Below, piece by piece: positions 2,160-11,344 of a DNA stretch of 64,000 bases. Numbering within the stretch: the stretch's first letter is position 1; every line of letters starts with the position of its first letter. The position numbers and the translations under genes were made by a program. The notes beneath the pieces were generated by a model, which ran no database searches, was not told the DNA's origin, and was given only the letters and a program-made list of their open reading frames with translations. Location of the stretch: NCBI RefSeq assembly GCF_055900595.2, contig NZ_CM148325.1. One strand, 5' to 3'.

Positions 2160-2732
2160 ATGCGTGGATTACGTCCGGCATTATCAACATTTCTCTTTTT
2201 GTTACTGATTACTGGCGGTGTTTACCCGCTGCTGACCACCGCGCTGGGGCAATGGTGGTTTCCCTGGCAGGCCAATGGTTCGTTGATTCGCGAAGGTGAT
2301 ACGGTGCGCGGCTCGGCATTAATCGGGCAGAATTTTACCGGCAACGGCTATTTTCATGGTCGCCCGTCGGCAACGGCAGAAATGCCCTATAATCCACAGG
2401 CTTCTGGCGGGAGCAATCTGGCGGTCAGTAACCCTGAGCTGGATAAACAAATCGCTGCACGCGTTGCCGTATTACGGGCTGCTAACCCGGATGCCAGCAC
2501 GAACGTTCCGGTTGAACTGGTGACGGCGTCGGCAAGCGGGCTGGACAATAATATTACCCCGCAAGCGGCGGTCTGGCAGATTCCTCGCGTGGCGAAAGCG
2601 CGTAATCTCAGCGTTGAACAGCTCACGCAGCTGATCGCAAAATACAGCCAACAACCGCTGGTGAAATATATCGGCCAGCCGGTCGTCAACATTGTCGAAC
2701 TCAATCTGGCGCTGGATAAGCTTGATGAATAA
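2160..2732 (+). CDS. kdpC: Potassium-transporting ATPase subunit C
   Basis: ORF 2136-2732; start placed at the internal Met ([11 protein letters not shown]...) matching the 190-aa KdpC length as recalled; single N-terminal TM helix; 8-nt overlap with kdpD start. Confidence 0.9.
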
Positions 2733-5409
2733 CGAACCCTTACGTCCCGACCCCGATCGTCTGCTGGAACAAACTGCCGCGCCGCATCGGGGGAAGCTGA
2801 AAGTTTTTTTCGGTGCCTGTGCAGGCGTCGGGAAGACCTGGGCGATGCTGGCAGAAGCCCAACGACTGCGGGCGCAAGGGCTGGATATTGTGGTTGGCGT
2901 GGTTGAAACTCACGGACGGAAAGATACCGCCGCAATGCTGGAAGGGCTGGCTGTTCTGCCGCTAAAACGCCAGGCGTACCGTGGGCGGCATATCAGCGAG
3001 TTTGATCTCGATGCCGCCCTCGCCCGCCGTCCGGCGCTGATCTTAATGGACGAACTGGCGCACAGTAATGCGCCAGGTTCTCGTCATCCTAAACGCTGGC
3101 AGGACATTGAAGAGCTGCTGGAAGCAGGCATTGATGTTTTCACTACCGTCAACGTTCAGCATCTGGAAAGTCTGAATGATGTGGTCAGTGGCGTCACCGG
3201 AATTCAGGTGCGGGAAACCGTGCCCGATCCCTTTTTTGATGCTGCCGACGACGTAGTGCTGGTGGACTTGCCCCCGGACGATCTGCGTCAACGGCTGAAA
3301 GAAGGCAAAGTCTATATTGCCGGGCAGGCGGAGCGCGCCATTGAACATTTTTTCCGCAAAGGCAATCTGATCGCCCTGCGCGAACTGGCACTGCGCCGTA
3401 CTGCCGATCGCGTAGATGAGCAAATGCGCGCCTGGCGGGGGCATCCTGGCGAAGAGAAAGTCTGGCACACGCGCGACGCGATCCTTTTATGCATCGGGCA
3501 TAACATCGGTAGTGAGAAACTGGTCCGCGCGGCGGCGCGGCTGGCGTCACGGCTGGGTAGCGTCTGGCACGCGGTGTATGTTGAAACCCCTGCCCTGCAT
3601 CGCTTACCGGAGAAAAAACGTCGGGCAATTCTCAGCGCCTTACGTCTGGCGCAGGAGCTGGGCGCGGAGACAGCAACACTTTCTGATCCGGCGGAAGAAA
3701 AAGCCGTAGTGCGTTATGCCCGTGAACATAATCTCGGCAAGATTATTCTCGGTCGCCCGGCCTCACGCCGCTGGTGGCGTCGGGAAACTTTTGCTGACCG
3801 ACTGGCGCGCATCGCCCCCGATCTCGATCAGGTGCTGGTCGCGCTTGATGAACCACCCGCCCGCACGATTAACAACGCGCCGGATAGCCGCTCTTTTAAA
3901 GACAAGTGGCGGGTACAAATTCAGGGATGCGTGGTTGCCGCCGCGTTATGCGCCGTTATCACCTTAATTGCCATGCAATGGCTGATGGCGTTTGATGCCG
4001 CCAACCTGGTGATGCTGTATCTGCTTGGCGTGGTGGTAGTGGCACTGTTTTATGGACGCTGGCCTTCGGTGCTTGCTACCGTCATTAATGTGGTGAGTTT
4101 CGATCTCTTTTTTATCGCCCCACGCGGCACGCTCGCCGTCTCTGATGTGCAGTATCTGCTGACTTTCGCGGTGATGTTAACCGTCGGGCTGGTGATCGGG
4201 AATCTTACTGCTGGCGTACGTTATCAGGCGCGGGTAGCCCGTTACCGCGAGCAACGCACACGACACTTATATGAAATGTCGAAAGCTCTGGCTGTGGGCC
4301 GCAGTCCGCAGGACATCGCCGCCACCAGCGAACAATTTATTGCTTCTACATTTCATGCCCGCAGCCAGGTGTTGTTGCCCGATGACAAAGGTAAATTACA
4401 GCCGTTAACACATCCGCAAGGAATGACGCCGTGGGAAGATGCCATCGCGCAGTGGAGTTTTGATAAAGGCCTGCCTGCGGGCGCGGGCACCGACACGTTA
4501 CCCGGTGTGCCATACCAGATTTTGCCGTTAAAAAGCGGCGAGAAAACCTACGGACTGGTGGTGGTGGAACCGGGGAATCTGCGCCAGTTGATGATCCCGG
4601 AACAGCAACGCCTGCTGGAGACGTTTACGTTGTTAGTCGCCAATGCCCTGGAACGCCTGACGCTGACCGCCAGCGAAGAACAGGCGCGGATGGCAAGCGA
4701 ACGTGAACAGATCCGCAACGCCCTGCTGGCGGCGCTTTCGCACGATTTACGCACGCCGCTTACGGTGCTGTTCGGTCAGGCAGAAATCTTAACGCTCGAT
4801 CTGGCAAGCGAAGGATCGCCCCACGCCCACCAGGCCAGCGAGATTCGTCAGCATGTGCTGAACACGACCCGACTGGTGAATAATCTACTGGATATGGCGC
4901 GAATTCAGTCCGGCGGCTTTAATTTGAAGAAAGAGTGGTTAACGCTGGAAGAAGTGGTCGGCAGCGCGCTGCAAATGCTGGAACCGGGTTTATCGTCGCC
5001 CATCAATCTTTCTCTGCCAGAACCGCTGACCTTAATCCACGTTGACGGGCCACTCTTTGAACGGGTGCTGATTAATCTGCTGGAGAACGCGGTGAAATAC
5101 GCGGGTGCACAGGCCGAAATTGGTATCGATGCCCACGTTGAGGGCGAAAATCTACAACTGGATGTCTGGGATAACGGCCCCGGTCTTCCGCCAGGCCAGG
5201 AGCAGACGATATTCGATAAGTTTGCCCGCGGGAATAAAGAGTCGGCGGTGCCGGGCGTCGGGCTTGGGCTGGCAATTTGTCGGGCGATTGTGGATGTACA
5301 CGGCGGCACCATTACCGCGTTCAACCGACCGGAAGGTGGTGCCTGTTTTCGTGTTACACTTCCCCAGCAAACTGCCCCTGAACTTGAAGAATTTCATGAG
5401 GATATGTGA
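2725..5409 (+). CDS. kdpD: Sensor histidine kinase KdpD
   Basis: ORF 2692-5409; start placed at [16 protein letters not shown] (894 aa); Usp-like N-terminal domain, 4 TM helices, H-box (LSHDLRTPL) and ATPase domain. Confidence 0.95.
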
Positions 5410-6083
5410 CAAACGTTCTGATTGTTGAAGATGAACAGGCTATTCGTCGCTTTCTGCGCACGGCGCTGGAGGGTGACGGTATGCGCGTTTTTGAAGCCGA
5501 AACGCTGCAACGGGGGCTGCTGGAAGCGGCAACTCGTAAGCCAGATTTGATTATTCTCGATCTCGGCCTGCCAGACGGTGATGGGATTGAGTTTATCCGC
5601 GACCTGCGCCAGTGGAGCGCGGTGCCGGTGATTGTGCTTTCCGCACGTAGCGAAGAGAGCGACAAAATCGCCGCGCTGGATGCTGGAGCGGATGATTACC
5701 TGAGTAAGCCGTTTGGCATTGGTGAATTGCAGGCCCGTCTGCGCGTTGCTTTACGCCGCCACTCTGCTACCACCGCGCCCGATCCGCGGGTGAAATTTTC
5801 TGATGTTACCGTCGATTTAGCCGCCCGCGTGATTCACCGCAGTGAGGAAGAGGTGCATCTCACCCCGATTGAATTCCGCCTGCTGGCGGTGCTGCTCAAC
5901 AATGCCGGAAAAGTGCTCACCCAGCGCCAGTTACTCATTCAGGTGTGGGGACCAAACGCGGTCGAACACAGCCATTATTTGCGTATTTATATGGGGCATC
6001 TGCGACAAAAACTGGAGCAAGATCCCGCCCGCCCTCGCCATTTTATTACTGAAACCGGTATTGGGTATCGGTTTATGCCATGA
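5406..6083 (+). CDS. kdpE: Response regulator KdpE (OmpR family)
   Basis: 225-aa ORF with a GTG start overlapping the kdpD stop (ATGTGA); receiver domain plus winged-helix domain. Confidence 0.95.
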   Translation: MTNVLIVEDEQAIRRFLRTALEGDGMRVFEAETLQRGLLEAATRKPDLIILDLGLPDGDGIEFIRDLRQWSAVPVIVLSARSEESDKIAALDAGADDYLSKPFGIGELQARLRVALRRHSATTAPDPRVKFSDVTVDLAARVIHRSEEEVHLTPIEFRLLAVLLNNAGKVLTQRQLLIQVWGPNAVEHSHYLRIYMGHLRQKLEQDPARPRHFITETGIGYRFMP

Positions 6084-6128
6084 ATTATTATTCAATAAAT
6101 ACGCTTAACTAATTATTAATTTATTATT

Positions 6129-6170
6129 AAACCTGCCCCGAAAATTATTATTTGGCAGGTTTAATTTCTT
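6129..6170 (+). terminator. Putative intrinsic terminator downstream of kdpE
   Basis: Inverted repeat aaacctgcc...ggcaggttt (9-bp stem) in an AT-rich region after the kdpE stop; the loop is long (about 16 nt), so it is weak. Confidence 0.35.
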
Positions 6171-6357
6171 AATGAAAATATAACCTACGAAATTGCAACA
6201 TTTAAACAACAAAACAGCATCTAATATGGCGCTATTCATAATTAACGATTTATTATTTGGGGTGTGATCGTTTTTTGTTGATCTTCTTCACAGTTTATAG
6301 CCTTTTCATGGATAGAATAACTCTACCTTCAACTGACACAGCAAAAGGTAAAGGTAA

Positions 6358-6462
6358 ATGGAAAATAATAACCGCTTAATGCCTCATATAAGGCGGACAA
6401 CCCATATCATGAAGTTTGCCCATCGTAATAGTTTTGACTTTCATTTCTTTAATGCCCGTTAG
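6358..6462 (+). CDS. speFL: Leader (arrest) peptide of the speF operon, 34 codons
   Basis: Small ORF read directly: MENNNRLMPHIRRTTHIMKFAHRNSFDFHFFNAR, stop TAG at 6460-6462, about 300 nt upstream of speF. Matches the SpeFL ornithine-sensing arrest peptide as I recall it. Below the ORF-track length cutoff. Confidence 0.8.
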   Translation: MENNNRLMPHIRRTTHIMKFAHRNSFDFHFFNAR

Positions 6463-6772
6463 TCTTCTGACTAAAGGGCACCCCAGCGTACAGGTCTCCC
6501 TGACTTTAAGCATTACAGGTTAATACCTGTATCCCTCGGTGCTCATATACTGCTAACCCTTTTAAACTCTAAATAATTCAAGTCGCAGCACTAGCAACTT
6601 GAAGTATGACGAGTATAGCCAGTTACCGGGCTGGTCTGGGTTATTGCATCTGCAAAAAGCAAACTACTGATTTATTTATCAGCGGTGGAGTTTTGCTTTT
6701 TTTCCGGCGTGATCGATTTCTCCTCTGAGAAATTGAGGACCTGCTATTACCTGAAATAAAGAGATGAACAAA

Positions 6773-8971
6773 ATGTCAGAATTAAAAATTGCCGTTAGTC
6801 GTTCTTGCCCGGATTGTTTTTCCACTCATCGTGCATGCGTGAATATTGACGAAAGTAATTATATTGACGTTGCCGCCATTATTTTATCAGTCAATGATGT
6901 TGAACGTGGAAAACTCGATGAAATAGACGCTACTGGCTATGGCATTCCTGTTTTTATTGCAACGGAAAATGAAGAACGTGTACCAGCAGAATATCTGCCA
7001 CGTATTACTGGTGTCTTCGAGCATTGTGAATCACGGAAAGAATTTTACGGACGTCAGTTAGAAACCGCTGCCAGCCATTATGAAACGCAGTTGCGCCCGC
7101 CCTTCTTCCGCGCACTGGTCGATTATGTCAATCAGGGCAATAGCGCTTTTGACTGCCCGGGTCATCAGGGGGGTGAGTTTTTCCGTCGCCATCCGGCAGG
7201 CAATCAGTTCGTGGAATATTTTGGTGAAATGCTCTTCCGCTCCGACTTGTGTAATGCCGACGTAGCAATGGGCGATCTACTGATTCATGAAGGTGCGCCA
7301 TGCATTGCACAGCAACATGCGGCTAAAGTGTTTAATGCCGATAAAACGTACTTTGTTTTAAACGGCACCTCCTCTTCCAACAAAGTGGTTTTAAACGCCC
7401 TGCTAACACCGGGTGATCTGGTGCTGTTTGACCGCAATAACCATAAGTCTAACCACCACGGGGCCTTGCTACAGGCTGGTGCAACACCGGTTTATCTGGA
7501 AACAGCACGTAACCCGTATGGTTTTATCGGTGGTATTGATGCGCACTGCTTCGAAGAAAGTTATCTGCGTGAACTGATTAGAGAAGTTGCACCGCAACGG
7601 GCAAAAGAGGCGCGTCCGTTCCGCCTCGCTGTGATTCAGTTAGGCACCTACGACGGTACTATTTATAACGCCCGCCAGGTGGTGGATAAAATCGGTCATC
7701 TGTGTGACTACATCCTGTTTGACTCAGCATGGGTCGGCTATGAACAGTTTATTCCGATGATGGCGGACTGTTCGCCGCTGCTACTGGAGCTTAATGAGAA
7801 CGATCCGGGTATTCTGGTTACGCAATCTGTACATAAGCAGCAGGCTGGTTTTTCTCAGACTTCACAAATTCATAAAAAAGACAGCCATATCAAAGGGCAA
7901 CAGCGTTATGTCCCGCACAAACGCATGAACAACGCCTTTATGATGCACGCCTCCACCAGCCCGTTCTATCCGCTGTTTGCCGCACTGGATATTAACGCCA
8001 AAATGCATGAAGGTGTCAGCGGTCGTAATATGTGGATGGATTGTGTGGTTAACGGTATTAATGCCCGCAAATTGATCCTCGATAACTGTCAGCACATTCG
8101 TCCGTTCGTTCCTGAACTGGTGGATGGTAAACCCTGGCAATCGTATGAAACAGCGCAAATTGCGGTTGATCTGCGCTTCTTTAAATTTGTACCCGGTGAG
8201 CACTGGCATTCTTTTGAAGGTTACGCAGAGAACCAATACTTTGTCGATCCGTGCAAACTGTTGCTGACAACTCCTGGCATTGATGCACGTAACGGCGAAT
8301 ATGAAGCATTCGGTGTACCCGCGACGATTCTTGCTAACTTCCTGCGCGAAAATGGCGTAGTGCCGGAAAAATGCGATCTTAACTCCATCCTCTTCCTGCT
8401 GACTCCGGCAGAAGATATGGCCAAACTGCAGCAACTTGTTGCCCTGCTGGTACGCTTCGAAAAACTACTGGAAGCTGATGCGCCTCTGGCGGAAGTATTG
8501 CCTTCCATCTACAAACAGCATGAAGAGCGCTACGCCGGTTATACCCTGCGTCAGTTGTGCCAGGAAATGCATGATTTGTATGCCCGTCACAACGTGAAAC
8601 AACTGCAAAAAGAGATGTTCCGTAAGGAACACTTCCCACGCGTCAGCATGAATCCACAGGAAGCCAACTATGCCTACTTACGCGGTGAAGTGGAATTGGT
8701 TCGTCTGCCGGATGCAGAAGGCCGTATCGCAGCCGAAGGTGCGCTTCCTTATCCTCCGGGTGTGCTGTGTGTTGTTCCGGGTGAAATCTGGGGTGGTGCT
8801 GTTCTGCATTACTTCAGCGCTCTGGAAGAAGGGATCAACCTGCTGCCAGGTTTTGCACCGGAGCTGCAGGGTGTCTATATCGAAGAACATGATGGTCGTA
8901 AGCAAGTTTGGTGCTATGTCATCAAGCCTCGTGATGCGCAAAGCACCCTGTTGAAAGGGGAAAAATTATGA
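6773..8971 (+). CDS. speF: Inducible ornithine decarboxylase
   Basis: ORF 6764-8971 (735 aa); PLP-dependent Orn/Lys/Arg decarboxylase family. Start at MSELKIAV (6773) preferred over 6764; the choice is uncertain. Confidence 0.93.
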   Translation: MSELKIAVSRSCPDCFSTHRACVNIDESNYIDVAAIILSVNDVERGKLDEIDATGYGIPVFIATENEERVPAEYLPRITGVFEHCESRKEFYGRQLETAASHYETQLRPPFFRALVDYVNQGNSAFDCPGHQGGEFFRRHPAGNQFVEYFGEMLFRSDLCNADVAMGDLLIHEGAPCIAQQHAAKVFNADKTYFVLNGTSSSNKVVLNALLTPGDLVLFDRNNHKSNHHGALLQAGATPVYLETARNPYGFIGGIDAHCFEESYLRELIREVAPQRAKEARPFRLAVIQLGTYDGTIYNARQVVDKIGHLCDYILFDSAWVGYEQFIPMMADCSPLLLELNENDPGILVTQSVHKQQAGFSQTSQIHKKDSHIKGQQRYVPHKRMNNAFMMHASTSPFYPLFAALDINAKMHEGVSGRNMWMDCVVNGINARKLILDNCQHIRPFVPELVDGKPWQSYETAQIAVDLRFFKFVPGEHWHSFEGYAENQYFVDPCKLLLTTPGIDARNGEYEAFGVPATILANFLRENGVVPEKCDLNSILFLLTPAEDMAKLQQLVALLVRFEKLLEADAPLAEVLPSIYKQHEERYAGYTLRQLCQEMHDLYARHNVKQLQKEMFRKEHFPRVSMNPQEANYAYLRGEVELVRLPDAEGRIAAEGALPYPPGVLCVVPGEIWGGAVLHYFSALEEGINLLPGFAPELQGVYIEEHDGRKQVWCYVIKPRDAQSTLLKGEKL

Positions 8972-10287
8972 GTCAGGCTAAATCGAACAAAATGGGCGTC
9001 GTTCAGTTAACCATACTGACGATGGTCAACATGATGGGCTCCGGCATCATCATGCTGCCGACAAAGCTTGCCGAAGTTGGGACAATCTCAATAATCTCCT
9101 GGTTGGTGACAGCCGTAGGCTCAATGGCGCTGGCATGGGCATTCGCAAAATGCGGTATGTTCAGCCGTAAATCAGGCGGTATGGGCGGTTATGCCGAGTA
9201 TGCTTTCGGTAAATCCGGTAACTTTATGGCGAACTATACCTACGGCGTCTCGCTGCTGATTGCTAACGTGGCGATTGCTATTTCGGCAGTTGGTTACGGC
9301 ACCGAACTGCTCGGCGCGAGTTTGTCACCAGTGCAGATTGGTCTGGCAACCATCGGAGTGCTGTGGATTTGTACCGTGGCTAACTTTGGTGGTGCGCGCA
9401 TTACCGGGCAAATCAGTAGCATTACCGTGTGGGGGGTCATTATTCCGGTGGTAGGCCTGTGCGTTATCGGCTGGTTCTGGTTTAGCCCGACACTTTACGT
9501 TGATTCCTGGAATCCGCATCATGCACCGTTCTTCAGTGCGGTAGGTTCTTCCATCGCCATGACGCTGTGGGCTTTTCTTGGTCTGGAGTCTGCGTGTGCG
9601 AATACTGATGTAGTGGAAAACCCGGAACGTAATGTGCCAATCGCGGTACTCGGCGGTACGTTAGGTGCGGCGGTGATTTATATCGTCTCCACCAACGTGA
9701 TTGCCGGGATTGTGCCCAATATGGAGCTGGCAAATTCAACGGCACCATTTGGTCTGGCCTTCGCGCAAATGTTCACACCGGAAGTGGGTAAAGTCATTAT
9801 GGCGCTGATGGTGATGTCCTGCTGCGGTTCACTGCTTGGCTGGCAGTTCACCATTGCCCAGGTGTTTAAATCTTCATCTGATGAAGGCTACTTCCCTAAA
9901 ATTTTCTCCCGTGTAACCAAAGTGGATGCACCGGTTCAGGGGATGTTGACCATTGTGATTATTCAGAGTGGATTGGCACTGATGACCATTAGCCCGTCAC
10001 TGAACAGCCAGTTCAACGTGCTGGTTAACCTGGCCGTGGTGACCAATATCATCCCATATATTCTGTCGATGGCGGCATTAGTCATTATTCAGAAGGTCGC
10101 CAATGTGCCACCATCAAAAGCGAAAGTAGCAAACTTTGTTGCCTTTGTTGGTGCGATGTACAGTTTCTATGCGCTGTACTCATCCGGGGAAGAAGCCATG
10201 CTGTACGGTTCCATCGTGACTTTCCTTGGTTGGACACTGTATGGTCTGGTATCACCACGCTTTGAACTGAAAAACAAACACGGTTAA
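8968..10287 (+). CDS. potE: Putrescine:ornithine antiporter
   Basis: 439-aa polytopic membrane ORF (APC family), start overlapping the speF stop (ATGA). Confidence 0.95.
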   Translation: MSQAKSNKMGVVQLTILTMVNMMGSGIIMLPTKLAEVGTISIISWLVTAVGSMALAWAFAKCGMFSRKSGGMGGYAEYAFGKSGNFMANYTYGVSLLIANVAIAISAVGYGTELLGASLSPVQIGLATIGVLWICTVANFGGARITGQISSITVWGVIIPVVGLCVIGWFWFSPTLYVDSWNPHHAPFFSAVGSSIAMTLWAFLGLESACANTDVVENPERNVPIAVLGGTLGAAVIYIVSTNVIAGIVPNMELANSTAPFGLAFAQMFTPEVGKVIMALMVMSCCGSLLGWQFTIAQVFKSSSDEGYFPKIFSRVTKVDAPVQGMLTIVIIQSGLALMTISPSLNSQFNVLVNLAVVTNIIPYILSMAALVIIQKVANVPPSKAKVANFVAFVGAMYSFYALYSSGEEAMLYGSIVTFLGWTLYGLVSPRFELKNKHG

Positions 10288-10305
10288 AAAAAGCGAAATA
10301 AATAT

Positions 10306-10330
10306 CCTCCGGCATAGCCGGAGGTTTTTC
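10306..10330 (+). terminator. Intrinsic terminator after potE
   Basis: cctccggc-ata-gccggagg hairpin followed by tttttc, about 20 nt after the potE stop. Confidence 0.7.
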
Positions 10331-11050
10331 AAATGCGCCTGTAAGGCTCTGTTACCAGCCGCGCCCTAACAGGCGCATACGATCTGACATTTGCATTCAA
10401 CTTCGTTACTTACGGCCCGTAAACGGGCTGCCCGGATATGGAATCGATAACTGCTCCCCCATTTTATCCTCTTCAAGCTGGTGCTTTATGTAGTCCTGTA
10501 TCTTCGCCGTGTTCTTACCCACCGTATCGACATAGTACCCTCGGCACCAGAACTCCCTGTTTCTGTATTTGAATTTCAAATCCCCAAACTGCTCGTAAAG
10601 CATCAGACTGCTTTTCCCTTTCAGATATCCCATAAAGCCGGATACGCTCATTTTGGGTGGGATTTCCACAAGCATATGGATATGATCTGCGCAGCACTCT
10701 GCTTCCAGAATCCGTACGCTTTTCCACTCACACAGCTTTCTCAAAATACTGCCTATCGCCCTACGCTTCTCTCCGTAAAACGCCAGTCTTCGGTATTTCG
10801 GCGCAAAAACTATGTGATATTTACAGTTCCAGCGGGTGTGCGCTAAGCTCTTTTCGTCCCCCATTGGGACCCCCTTTTGATTTCTTGTTTGACACTTGCA
10901 GTTGCCAGACCGCAAGGTGTTTTAACAAATCAAAAGGGGTTTTAATAACTGGCTCAAAGCTGAAAGCTTTCCGGAACCCCCAGCCTAGCTGGGGGTTTTC
11001 TGTGCACAAAAAAAGGGCGATTGAATGATCGCCCTTTCTGTTTGTTGACA
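10330..11050 (-). mobile_element. IS200-like insertion sequence (IS200/IS605 family); ends approximate
   Basis: Contains a Y1 transposase gene (HTRWNCKYHIVFAPKYRR motif) flanked by hairpins: cccccagc-cta-gctggggg at about 10978-10998 and a stem followed by a T-run on the minus strand at about 11012-11045. Size (about 0.7 kb) is consistent with IS200. Exact ends not determinable by eye. Confidence 0.75.
10406..10864 (-). CDS. tnpA: IS200/IS605-family Y1 (HUH) transposase TnpA
   Basis: ORF 10406-10915; start placed at MGDEKSLAHTRWNCKYHIVFAPKYRR (152 aa). Contains the HxH motif (ADHIHMLVEIPP) and a C-terminal region typical of IS200 TnpA. Confidence 0.9.
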   Translation of the reverse strand: MGDEKSLAHTRWNCKYHIVFAPKYRRLAFYGEKRRAIGSILRKLCEWKSVRILEAECCADHIHMLVEIPPKMSVSGFMGYLKGKSSLMLYEQFGDLKFKYRNREFWCRGYYVDTVGKNTAKIQDYIKHQLEEDKMGEQLSIPYPGSPFTGRK

Positions 11051-11078: not shown

Positions 11079-11221
11079 CAGGTGTAGGATCCAAACGCGG
11101 TCGAACACAGCAACTATTTGCGTAATTATATGAGGCATTTGCGACAAAAACTGGAACAGGATCACGTCCGCCCCGCCATTTCATTACTGAAACCGGTATT
11201 GGGTATCGGTTTATGCTTTGA
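11079..11221 (+). repeat. Decayed direct duplicate of the kdpE 3' end (kdpE-remnant pseudo-sequence)
   Basis: 143 bp that align by eye with kdpE 5940-6083 (caggtgt...aaccggtattgggtatcggtttatgc...tga). The copy has TGG to TAG and a 1-nt deletion, so it is non-coding. Confidence 0.8.
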
Positions 11222-11344
11222 AAAAAGTGGCAATGTATGGATAAAGTCATTTTTTATTCAAATATAAGGAACTTAATATTTAAAAAATGTCCCATACAAT
11301 GCCTCATCATAAATGACACCGTAGCACACAAGGAGCAAGTAGCG

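Follow-up and report, generated by a model that had tools for sequence, protein, structure and literature searches.

A SpeFL leader ORF in its common Escherichia coli allelic form upstream of speF-potE

In Escherichia coli K-12, residues 1-13 of the leader peptide SpeFL form an N-terminal hairpin, the sensor domain, which together with the 23S rRNA holds one L-ornithine via Pro9, Arg12 and Arg13, the HIRRXXH loop corresponding to residues 10-16; residues 14-34 form the effector domain, built on F20, F26, F28, F30 and F31, the compaction of which forces U2585 into a position that bars RF1 from the UAG stop codon (Herrero del Valle et al., 10.1101/604074). The rut site overlaps speFL and, once it is covered by stalled and queued ribosomes, Rho termination does not occur; when ornithine is scarce, rare Arg codons at positions 12-13 prevent the ribosomes from piling up, which allows Rho to load (10.1101/604074). 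Arrest is lost when the K-12 ORF is frameshifted, and it is abolished by the removal of residues 1-7, so that the N-terminal hairpin is needed (10.1101/604074). All of the structural and toeprinting work has been performed on the K-12 sequence, and the K-12 leader was used in all reporter assays.

In Salmonella enterica, the orthologous 34-codon leader of speF, orf34, is transcribed from a start site (TSS) 31 nt before its AUG and, when it is left untranslated, Rho terminates transcription at +157, i.e. ~21 nt beyond its stop codon; the operon is induced by ornithine, with arginine and RNase G acting as a further regulatory layer (Ben-Zvi et al., 2019; PMC6386406). Codons 12-13, both rare Arg codons, have been given a role in rut-site exposure (10.1101/604074) as well as in the arginine response (PMC6386406). 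More distantly, TnaC of the tnaCAB operon relies on the same logic, i.e. a ligand-dependent (tryptophan) release-factor block at the leader stop codon that masks rut and stops Rho (10.1101/604074), but with an unrelated peptide, ligand and binding site, and it stands outside the SpeFL family.

The speFL ORF and its operon

The window considered here is a stretch of 64,000 nt of contig NZ_CM148325.1 (RefSeq assembly GCF_055900595.2), in which a first-pass annotation had pointed to a 34-codon speFL ORF about 300 nt upstream of speF. Both statements hold, as the frame is open throughout without any break, its translation is the one originally transcribed (Table 1), and 310 nt separate its stop codon from the ATG of speF, with the start of the latter taken as 6773. 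The ORF opens with ATG GAA AAT AAT AAC CGC TTA ATG CCT CAT ATA AGG CGG and closes with GCC CGT TAG, the UAG stop lying at 6460-6462. The alternative speF start at 6764 given by the ORF listing is disfavoured by the RefSeq annotation and by the frame preserved in the K-12 alignment. The gene order is kdpD (2692-5409), kdpE (5406-6083), speFL, speF and potE, all on the plus strand, which makes speFL co-oriented with the downstream genes. As SpeF and PotE each exceed their equivalog cutoff, the speF-potE operon is intact. Besides, an ORF of 43-44 aa at 6248-6379 (+), called 'TonB-dependent receptor' or 'hypothetical protein' by RefSeq in window-type genomes, overlaps both the promoter of speFL and its start codon; no Pfam model matches this ORF, the surrounding DNA is poorly conserved, and it is probably a spurious gene call.

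Table 1. Features of the speFL-speF-potE region, in window coordinates.
Feature	Position	Strand	Basis
Putative -10 hexamer TAGAAT of the speFL-speF-potE promoter	6313-6318	+	Inferred from conservation and Salmonella TSS geometry
Shine-Dalgarno region of speFL, AAGGTAAAGG	6345-6354	+	Read from sequence; purine-rich, 3-9 nt before the ATG, conserved in the alignment
speFL ORF, 34 codons + TAG, MENNNRLMPHIRRTTHIMKFAHRNSFDFHFFNAR	6358-6462	+	Annotated speFL in a 99.8%-identical genome
Codons 5-7, AAC CGC TTA = N-R-L (K-12: AGC CGC ACT = S-R-T)	6370-6378	+	Comparison with K-12
Pro9 and HIRRTTH (HIRRXXH) ornithine-recognition motif, codons 9-16	6382-6405	+	Sequence; role of the motif from 10.1101/604074
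Consecutive rare Arg codons AGG-CGG (R12, R13)	6391-6396	+	Sequence; AGG is codon 12 in 65/71 species
Pause hairpin, U-GCCC-G-UUAGUC-[UUCU]-GACUAA-A-GGGC-A	6453-6480	+	Spans codons 33-34 and the UAG
C-rich, G-poor tract (C 27-32%, G 8-18%), candidate part of the Rho loading region	6480-6600	+	Composition; rut assignment inferred
Miniature ERIC/IRU repeat, 53 nt, with stem-loop 6577-6603	6565-6617	+	Aligned with full ERIC repeats of the dxs-yajO and pgk-fbaA intergenic regions
Conserved 3' leader with hairpin 6716-6733 and speF Shine-Dalgarno (~6760-6764)	6613-6772	+	80-89% identical across haplotypes/species; alignment and folds
speF, inducible ornithine decarboxylase, intact	6773-8971	+	TIGR04301 ODC_inducible, 1436 bits (cutoff 1310)
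potE, putrescine-ornithine antiporter, intact	8968-10287	+	NF007938, 856 bits (cutoff 409)

The mere existence of such an ORF proves nothing, since 90 ORFs of at least 30 aa overlap the same 9-kb stretch, and its identification relies on family evidence. The peptide scores 27.9 bits against the Pfam SpeFL model PF10940 (formerly DUF2618; gathering score 25) and matches the SpeFL chain of the cryo-EM entries 6TBV/6TC3 (E = 1.7e-18, 32/34 identical residues); RefSeq labels the same ORF 'speFL: leader peptide SpeFL' in genomes 99.8% identical across the region, and no NCBIfam model matches the 34-aa peptide. All of the residues reported as important are present, namely E2, N3, P9, H10, I11, R12, R13, H16, F20, R23, N24, F26, F28, F30, F31, N32 and A33. 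Pro9 directly precedes HIRRTTH at residues 10-16, the tandem AGG-CGG codons occupy positions 12-13, and the Phe residues of the effector domain are followed by N32-A33-R34 and the stop codon, this region being identical to the 6TBV chain, in agreement with the match to SpeFL first noticed for the C-terminal part. Residues 1-7 are likewise intact (M-E-N-N-N-R-L) with E2 and N3 conserved, positions 5 and 7 differing from K-12 inside the range of natural variation. K-12 SpeFL (Swiss-Prot SPEFL_ECOLI) has the same locus, length, UAG codon and K19, as well as an identical HIRRTTH motif, Phe core, pair of Arg codons and pause hairpin over its 3' end, and departs from the window by S5/T7 in place of N5/L7 and by 10 synonymous differences.

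At the nucleotide level, 14 of the 105 positions differ between the window and K-12, comprising 10 synonymous third-position changes and two replaced codons (dS ~1.1, dN 0.04, dN/dS 0.036), and the non-coding flanks of the same genome pair are only 50-80% identical. With such a low dN/dS amid poorly conserved non-coding DNA, the speFL frame forms an island in which purifying selection has acted on the sequence of the peptide, and the length of the ORF is the same across 71 species-representative genomes. Judged from sequence, the ORF encodes SpeFL, the ornithine-sensing leader peptide that precedes speF-potE; it is real but ordinary, and we are highly confident that it is functional as the leader of speFL-speF-potE, in the commonest E. 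coli allelic form. Every defining feature of SpeFL that can be checked in this way is present, and arrest and Rho dependence would be shared with the orthologues from which they are transferred. The peptide is also already known, as it is identical to an annotated and very common protein.

Residues 5 and 7 and the allelic diversity of speFL

The first-pass annotation had further suggested that residues 5-7 depart from the K-12 sequence. Alignment with annotated SpeFL sequences supports this for S5N (AGC to AAC) and T7L (ACT to TTA) but not for R6, which is the same in both, and K-12 (JM109) encodes MENNSRTMPHIRR...; the N-terminus is indeed not identical to the K-12 reference, in an ORF that is not interrupted. 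This variation is not peculiar to the window, since K-12 carries a minority allele and the window the majority one. Of 5,426 complete E. coli genomes searched with allele-specific 45-nt queries, 3,303 (~61%) have the N-terminal coding sequence of the window type and 1,700 (~31%) that of the K-12 type. The exact peptide corresponds to RefSeq WP_001312672.1 'leader peptide SpeFL', found in O157:H7, ST131, Shigella sonnei and others, the ORF DNA being 98-100% identical with no difference at the protein level, and to the UniRef entry J7QD09_ECOLX 'Leader peptide SpeFL', which at least 1,000 contigs carry; the window-type ORF occurs in the type strain ATCC 11775 as well. The SpeFL of the window is the standard, annotated form, and its apparent variation reflects the choice of K-12 as the reference. 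Taken as 'the' E. coli sequence, K-12 SpeFL describes about one third of the sequenced strains, and the N5/L7 consensus-like form is that of O157:H7, ST131 and the type strain. As for the 651-nt leader region of the window, only 14 records match it at 99% identity or more, which places the window in a less-sampled lineage.

Both positions are naturally variable. Among 71 species representatives of the Enterobacteriaceae, 52 have N at residue 5 and 19 have S, and the amino acid at residue 7 is L (34), T (12), M (9), A (5), I (4), V (3), S (2) or F (2); N-R-L is the commonest combination at residues 5-7 (30/71) and S-R-T the second (12/71). The former also occurs in Enterobacter, Lelliottia, Kluyvera and Atlantibacter, SRL, SRI, SRA and SRM are encountered as well, and the Salmonella enterica homologues have N5/F7. 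These representatives were gathered with a degenerate DNA pattern for PHIRRTTHIM, which makes positions 9-18 invariant by construction, and the scan is incomplete, as it missed for instance the E. coli type strain, which does have speFL. With the commonest N-R-L combination and a higher Pfam score, the window allele is, by sequence comparison, nearer to the family consensus than that of K-12. Of note, the experimentally characterised K-12 SpeFL obtains 23.8 bits against PF10940, narrowly under the gathering score of 25.

Contacts with the ribosome or the ligand are listed for E2, N3, P9, H10, R12, R13, H16 and residues of the effector domain, and none for residues 5 or 7 (10.1101/604074). As these two sites of the sensor hairpin are naturally variable and free of reported contacts, and as the N5/F7 system of Salmonella responds to ornithine, S5N and T7L are most likely neutral or nearly neutral polymorphisms, with a quantitative effect on ornithine sensitivity being possible. 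In Salmonella, orf34 shares with the window N5, the Arg codons, ornithine induction and Rho-dependent termination just past the hairpin, the two differing by F7 and M19 vs. L7 and K19, by a longer 5' UTR (speF AUG at +516) and by other downstream structures. A constraint on codons 5-7 at the RNA level, through pairing with the Arg codons, was considered and rejected, since local folding does not exceed that of shuffled sequences, with z scores ranging from 0 to -1.5, and the fold is different in each species. A literature search for studies of SpeFL alleles or polymorphisms returned nothing relevant, a paper on the conservation of non-coding alleles in E. coli making no mention of speF.

Other variants were encountered along the way. 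Lys19 (6412-6414) was found only in the Escherichia sequences sampled, i.e. both E. coli haplotypes, E. albertii and the E69 species representative, the other genera having Met19; its presence in both E. coli haplotypes argues for a long history of the two inside Escherichia. A K-12-type allele with T14K, within the HIRRXXH motif, is present on at least 1,000 contigs and may explain all or part of the 339 genomes that are 95-99% identical to the K-12-type N-terminal query; in E. coli NDM5 (locus L005, 1501-1605), it adjoins a frameshifted speF pseudogene and is called 'hypothetical protein' by RefSeq. Another frequent allele, MENNNRKMPHIRRVTH..., is found on 593 contigs. The record of E. coli CFT073 (locus L006, 2995-3036) shows an in-frame deletion of 63 nt in speFL, equivalent to window positions 6364-6426, leaving MENSFDFHFFNAR, i.e. 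the sensor domain and the Arg codons are gone and the downstream speF is intact; this is either strain-specific or an assembly error, and it was rejected as a common lineage marker, being seen in a single one of the 5,426 genomes. In this same set, about 383 complete genomes lack a match to the speFL ORF and 197 a match to the 651-nt leader region. Enterobacterial speFL also appears on contigs assigned to a Collinsella sp. MAG and to a Chryseobacterium sp., most likely by contamination or mis-binning, the Collinsella-assigned contig being 100% identical to E. coli K-12 across kdpE-speFL-speF.

Leader RNA elements and the predicted attenuation

Upstream of the ORF, GGATAGAATA is invariant in the alignment of the window, CFT073, K-12 and E. 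albertii. With the mapped Salmonella TSS lying 31 nt before the orf34 AUG, the window counterpart can be placed at ~6327, or within ~6325-6327; a promoter consensus scan made no call at the speFL site, and no good -35 element was found. At the other end of the ORF, the pause hairpin extends over the 3' end of speFL, as in K-12, with a minimum free energy of -16.7 kcal/mol and a z score of -3.0. Across 27 diverse leaders, 85% of the cells are paired vs. 20-38% in controls where the 3' partners were slid by 1-3 columns, and compensatory changes occur at six pairs, the covariation score being reached by none of 500 shuffles. This was scored on a hand-specified structure, as RNAalifold returned only the outer stem, the register of the inner one shifting among genera.

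The end of the Rho-terminated transcript of Salmonella, ~21 nt past the stop codon, maps to ~6483 in the window. The C-rich, G-poor tract downstream of the hairpin and the absence of any predicted intrinsic terminator on the plus strand are consistent with Rho-dependent termination. By analogy with Salmonella, the conserved 3' leader would act in the sequestration of the speF ribosome-binding site. The leader as a whole is strongly structured (z = -4.6). Searching 6000-6900 against Rfam gave nothing significant; a weak match to isrH (6561-6617; 18 bits vs. a gathering score of 45) is probably explained by the ERIC fragment described below.

Arranged along the leader, these elements would support the following scenario. 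The operon would be transcribed from a promoter about 30 nt before the speFL ORF, and RNA polymerase would pause at the hairpin holding the last speFL codons and the UAG. At low ornithine, the translating ribosome would terminate and depart, Rho would load on the C-rich leader and transcription would stop just past the hairpin. At high ornithine, the nascent sensor domain (residues 1-13, with its HIRRXXH loop) would trap one L-ornithine against the 23S rRNA in the exit tunnel, the Phe-rich C-terminal effector domain would compact and block RF1 at the UAG, and the stalled and queued ribosomes would mask the Rho site, letting transcription continue into speF-potE. This mechanism is known for the K-12 and Salmonella orthologues, and its extension to the window is suggested by the complete conservation of its parts; the K-12 attenuation model is applied to the window haplotype by transfer, across leaders that are 50-80% identical and with an extra mini-ERIC stem-loop in the window.

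Two diverged haplotypes and the competing readings

Each of the two E. coli speFL alleles sits in its own haplotype, and these haplotypes are deeply diverged over a ~1.6-kb block (~6000-7650) that covers the 3' end of kdpE, the leader and the first ~900 nt of speF, where the window and K-12 are 50-80% identical against a background of 95-96%. Their dS reaches ~1.1 in speFL and in codons 1-100 of speF (dN 0.10 in the latter), decreases to 0.52 in codons 101-300 and lies at 0.15-0.26 in kdpD, kdpE, the rest of speF and potE, which suggests either a polymorphism of long standing or import by recombination in the distant past. The 310-nt leader of the window type aligns end to end with those of E. 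albertii and of another Escherichia species representative (304-307 nt; 85-87% identity), and the 257-nt leader of K-12 has the architecture common to Citrobacter and Phytobacter (254-257 nt). A recent import of the K-12 allele from Citrobacter is not supported, for although leader architecture and S-R-T are common to K-12, Citrobacter and Phytobacter, identity amounts to only 76-84% and K19 is kept; the donor of the K-12-type haplotype, if any, is unsampled.

The gap in leader length corresponds to a segment of 51 nt (6562-6612) that is absent from K-12 and contains most of a miniature ERIC repeat, the left end ACTCTAAATAATTCAAGT of which is fused to the right end CGCAGCACTAGCAACTTGAAGTATGACGAGTATAG, the ~75-nt core being gone. 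Sequences like 6562-6612 are found at a median of five places per E. coli genome. In this leader position, the repeat is present in the window type and, in a diverged form, in E. albertii and another Escherichia species, and is absent from K-12, Citrobacter and Phytobacter. It lies downstream of the Rho termination point and before the conserved 3' leader with the speF ribosome-binding site. The leader of K-12 is without this ERIC-derived stem-loop, which is carried at this place by most E. coli and other Escherichia.

Such a divergence invites the question of whether the N5/L7 allele, the diverged leader and the mini-ERIC make up a distinct regulatory variant, one that would still sense ornithine but with another threshold, basal level or mRNA stability, both haplotypes being kept for that reason. 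The contrast in dS with the flanking genes, the high frequency of both alleles, the 51-nt structured insertion and many substitutions between the leaders, and the requirement of residues 1-7 for arrest are in line with it. However, residues 5 and 7 vary freely among genera with no visible link to the leader type and no reported contacts, the mechanistically defined elements are all conserved in both haplotypes, and a single old recombination import without selection would also explain the divergence; on balance, we hold this reading to be improbable, though the best placed of the alternatives. The more specific proposal, that the two haplotypes (N5/L7 with a 310-nt mini-ERIC leader, diverged promoter and SpeF N-terminus vs. 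S5/T7 with a 257-nt leader) differ in the speF-potE response to ornithine, acid or arginine, deserves equally little credence. If true, it would amount to a modest, strain-level refinement of the known mechanism, and the K-12 model would cover a minority regulatory type only. As neither haplotype has lost the conserved block near the promoter, the ORF, the pause hairpin or the 3' leader, the same qualitative regulation is to be expected from the two haplotypes, a quantitative difference being possible.

From another angle, the ORF could mainly sense the arginine supply, the speed of the ribosome at the two rare Arg codons governing leader folding and RNase G sensitivity as in the Salmonella model, with ornithine arrest being secondary. 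The conservation of AGG-CGG, the strong structure of the leader and the arginine/RNase G regulation reported in Salmonella (PMC6386406) would fit, but conservation extends over the whole peptide beyond the Arg codons (dN/dS 0.036), which requires that selection act on the peptide itself, as an arrest peptide would lead one to expect, and the frameshifted K-12 ORF loses arrest (10.1101/604074). Moreover, ornithine arrest and arginine sensing do not exclude each other but form layers of a single system, and a primarily arginine-sensing role appears very unlikely. That the ORF is a chance or decayed frame without function in this strain, as the abundance of short ORFs and the lack of an NCBIfam match might have hinted, is scarcely credible and effectively refuted by conservation, in view of the Pfam and PDB chain matches, the same length in 71 species, the 10 synonymous vs. 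two replacement changes between the haplotypes and the intact speF and potE downstream.

A direct repeat of ~145 nt flanks speFL-speF-potE, with one copy at 5940-6084 in the 3' end of kdpE and a degenerate copy at 11079-11222 (87-92% identity, spacing of 5139), for which the K-12 annotation gives a partial winged-helix pseudogene. Such an arrangement suggests that, at some point in the past, the cassette either inserted into the kdpE end or duplicated it. In addition, ~700 nt located after potE (10303-11008) have no counterpart in K-12 and enclose an ORF for an IS200-like Y1 transposase on the minus strand (10406-10915; Pfam PF01797, 126 bits), so that this segment is an IS200-family insertion.
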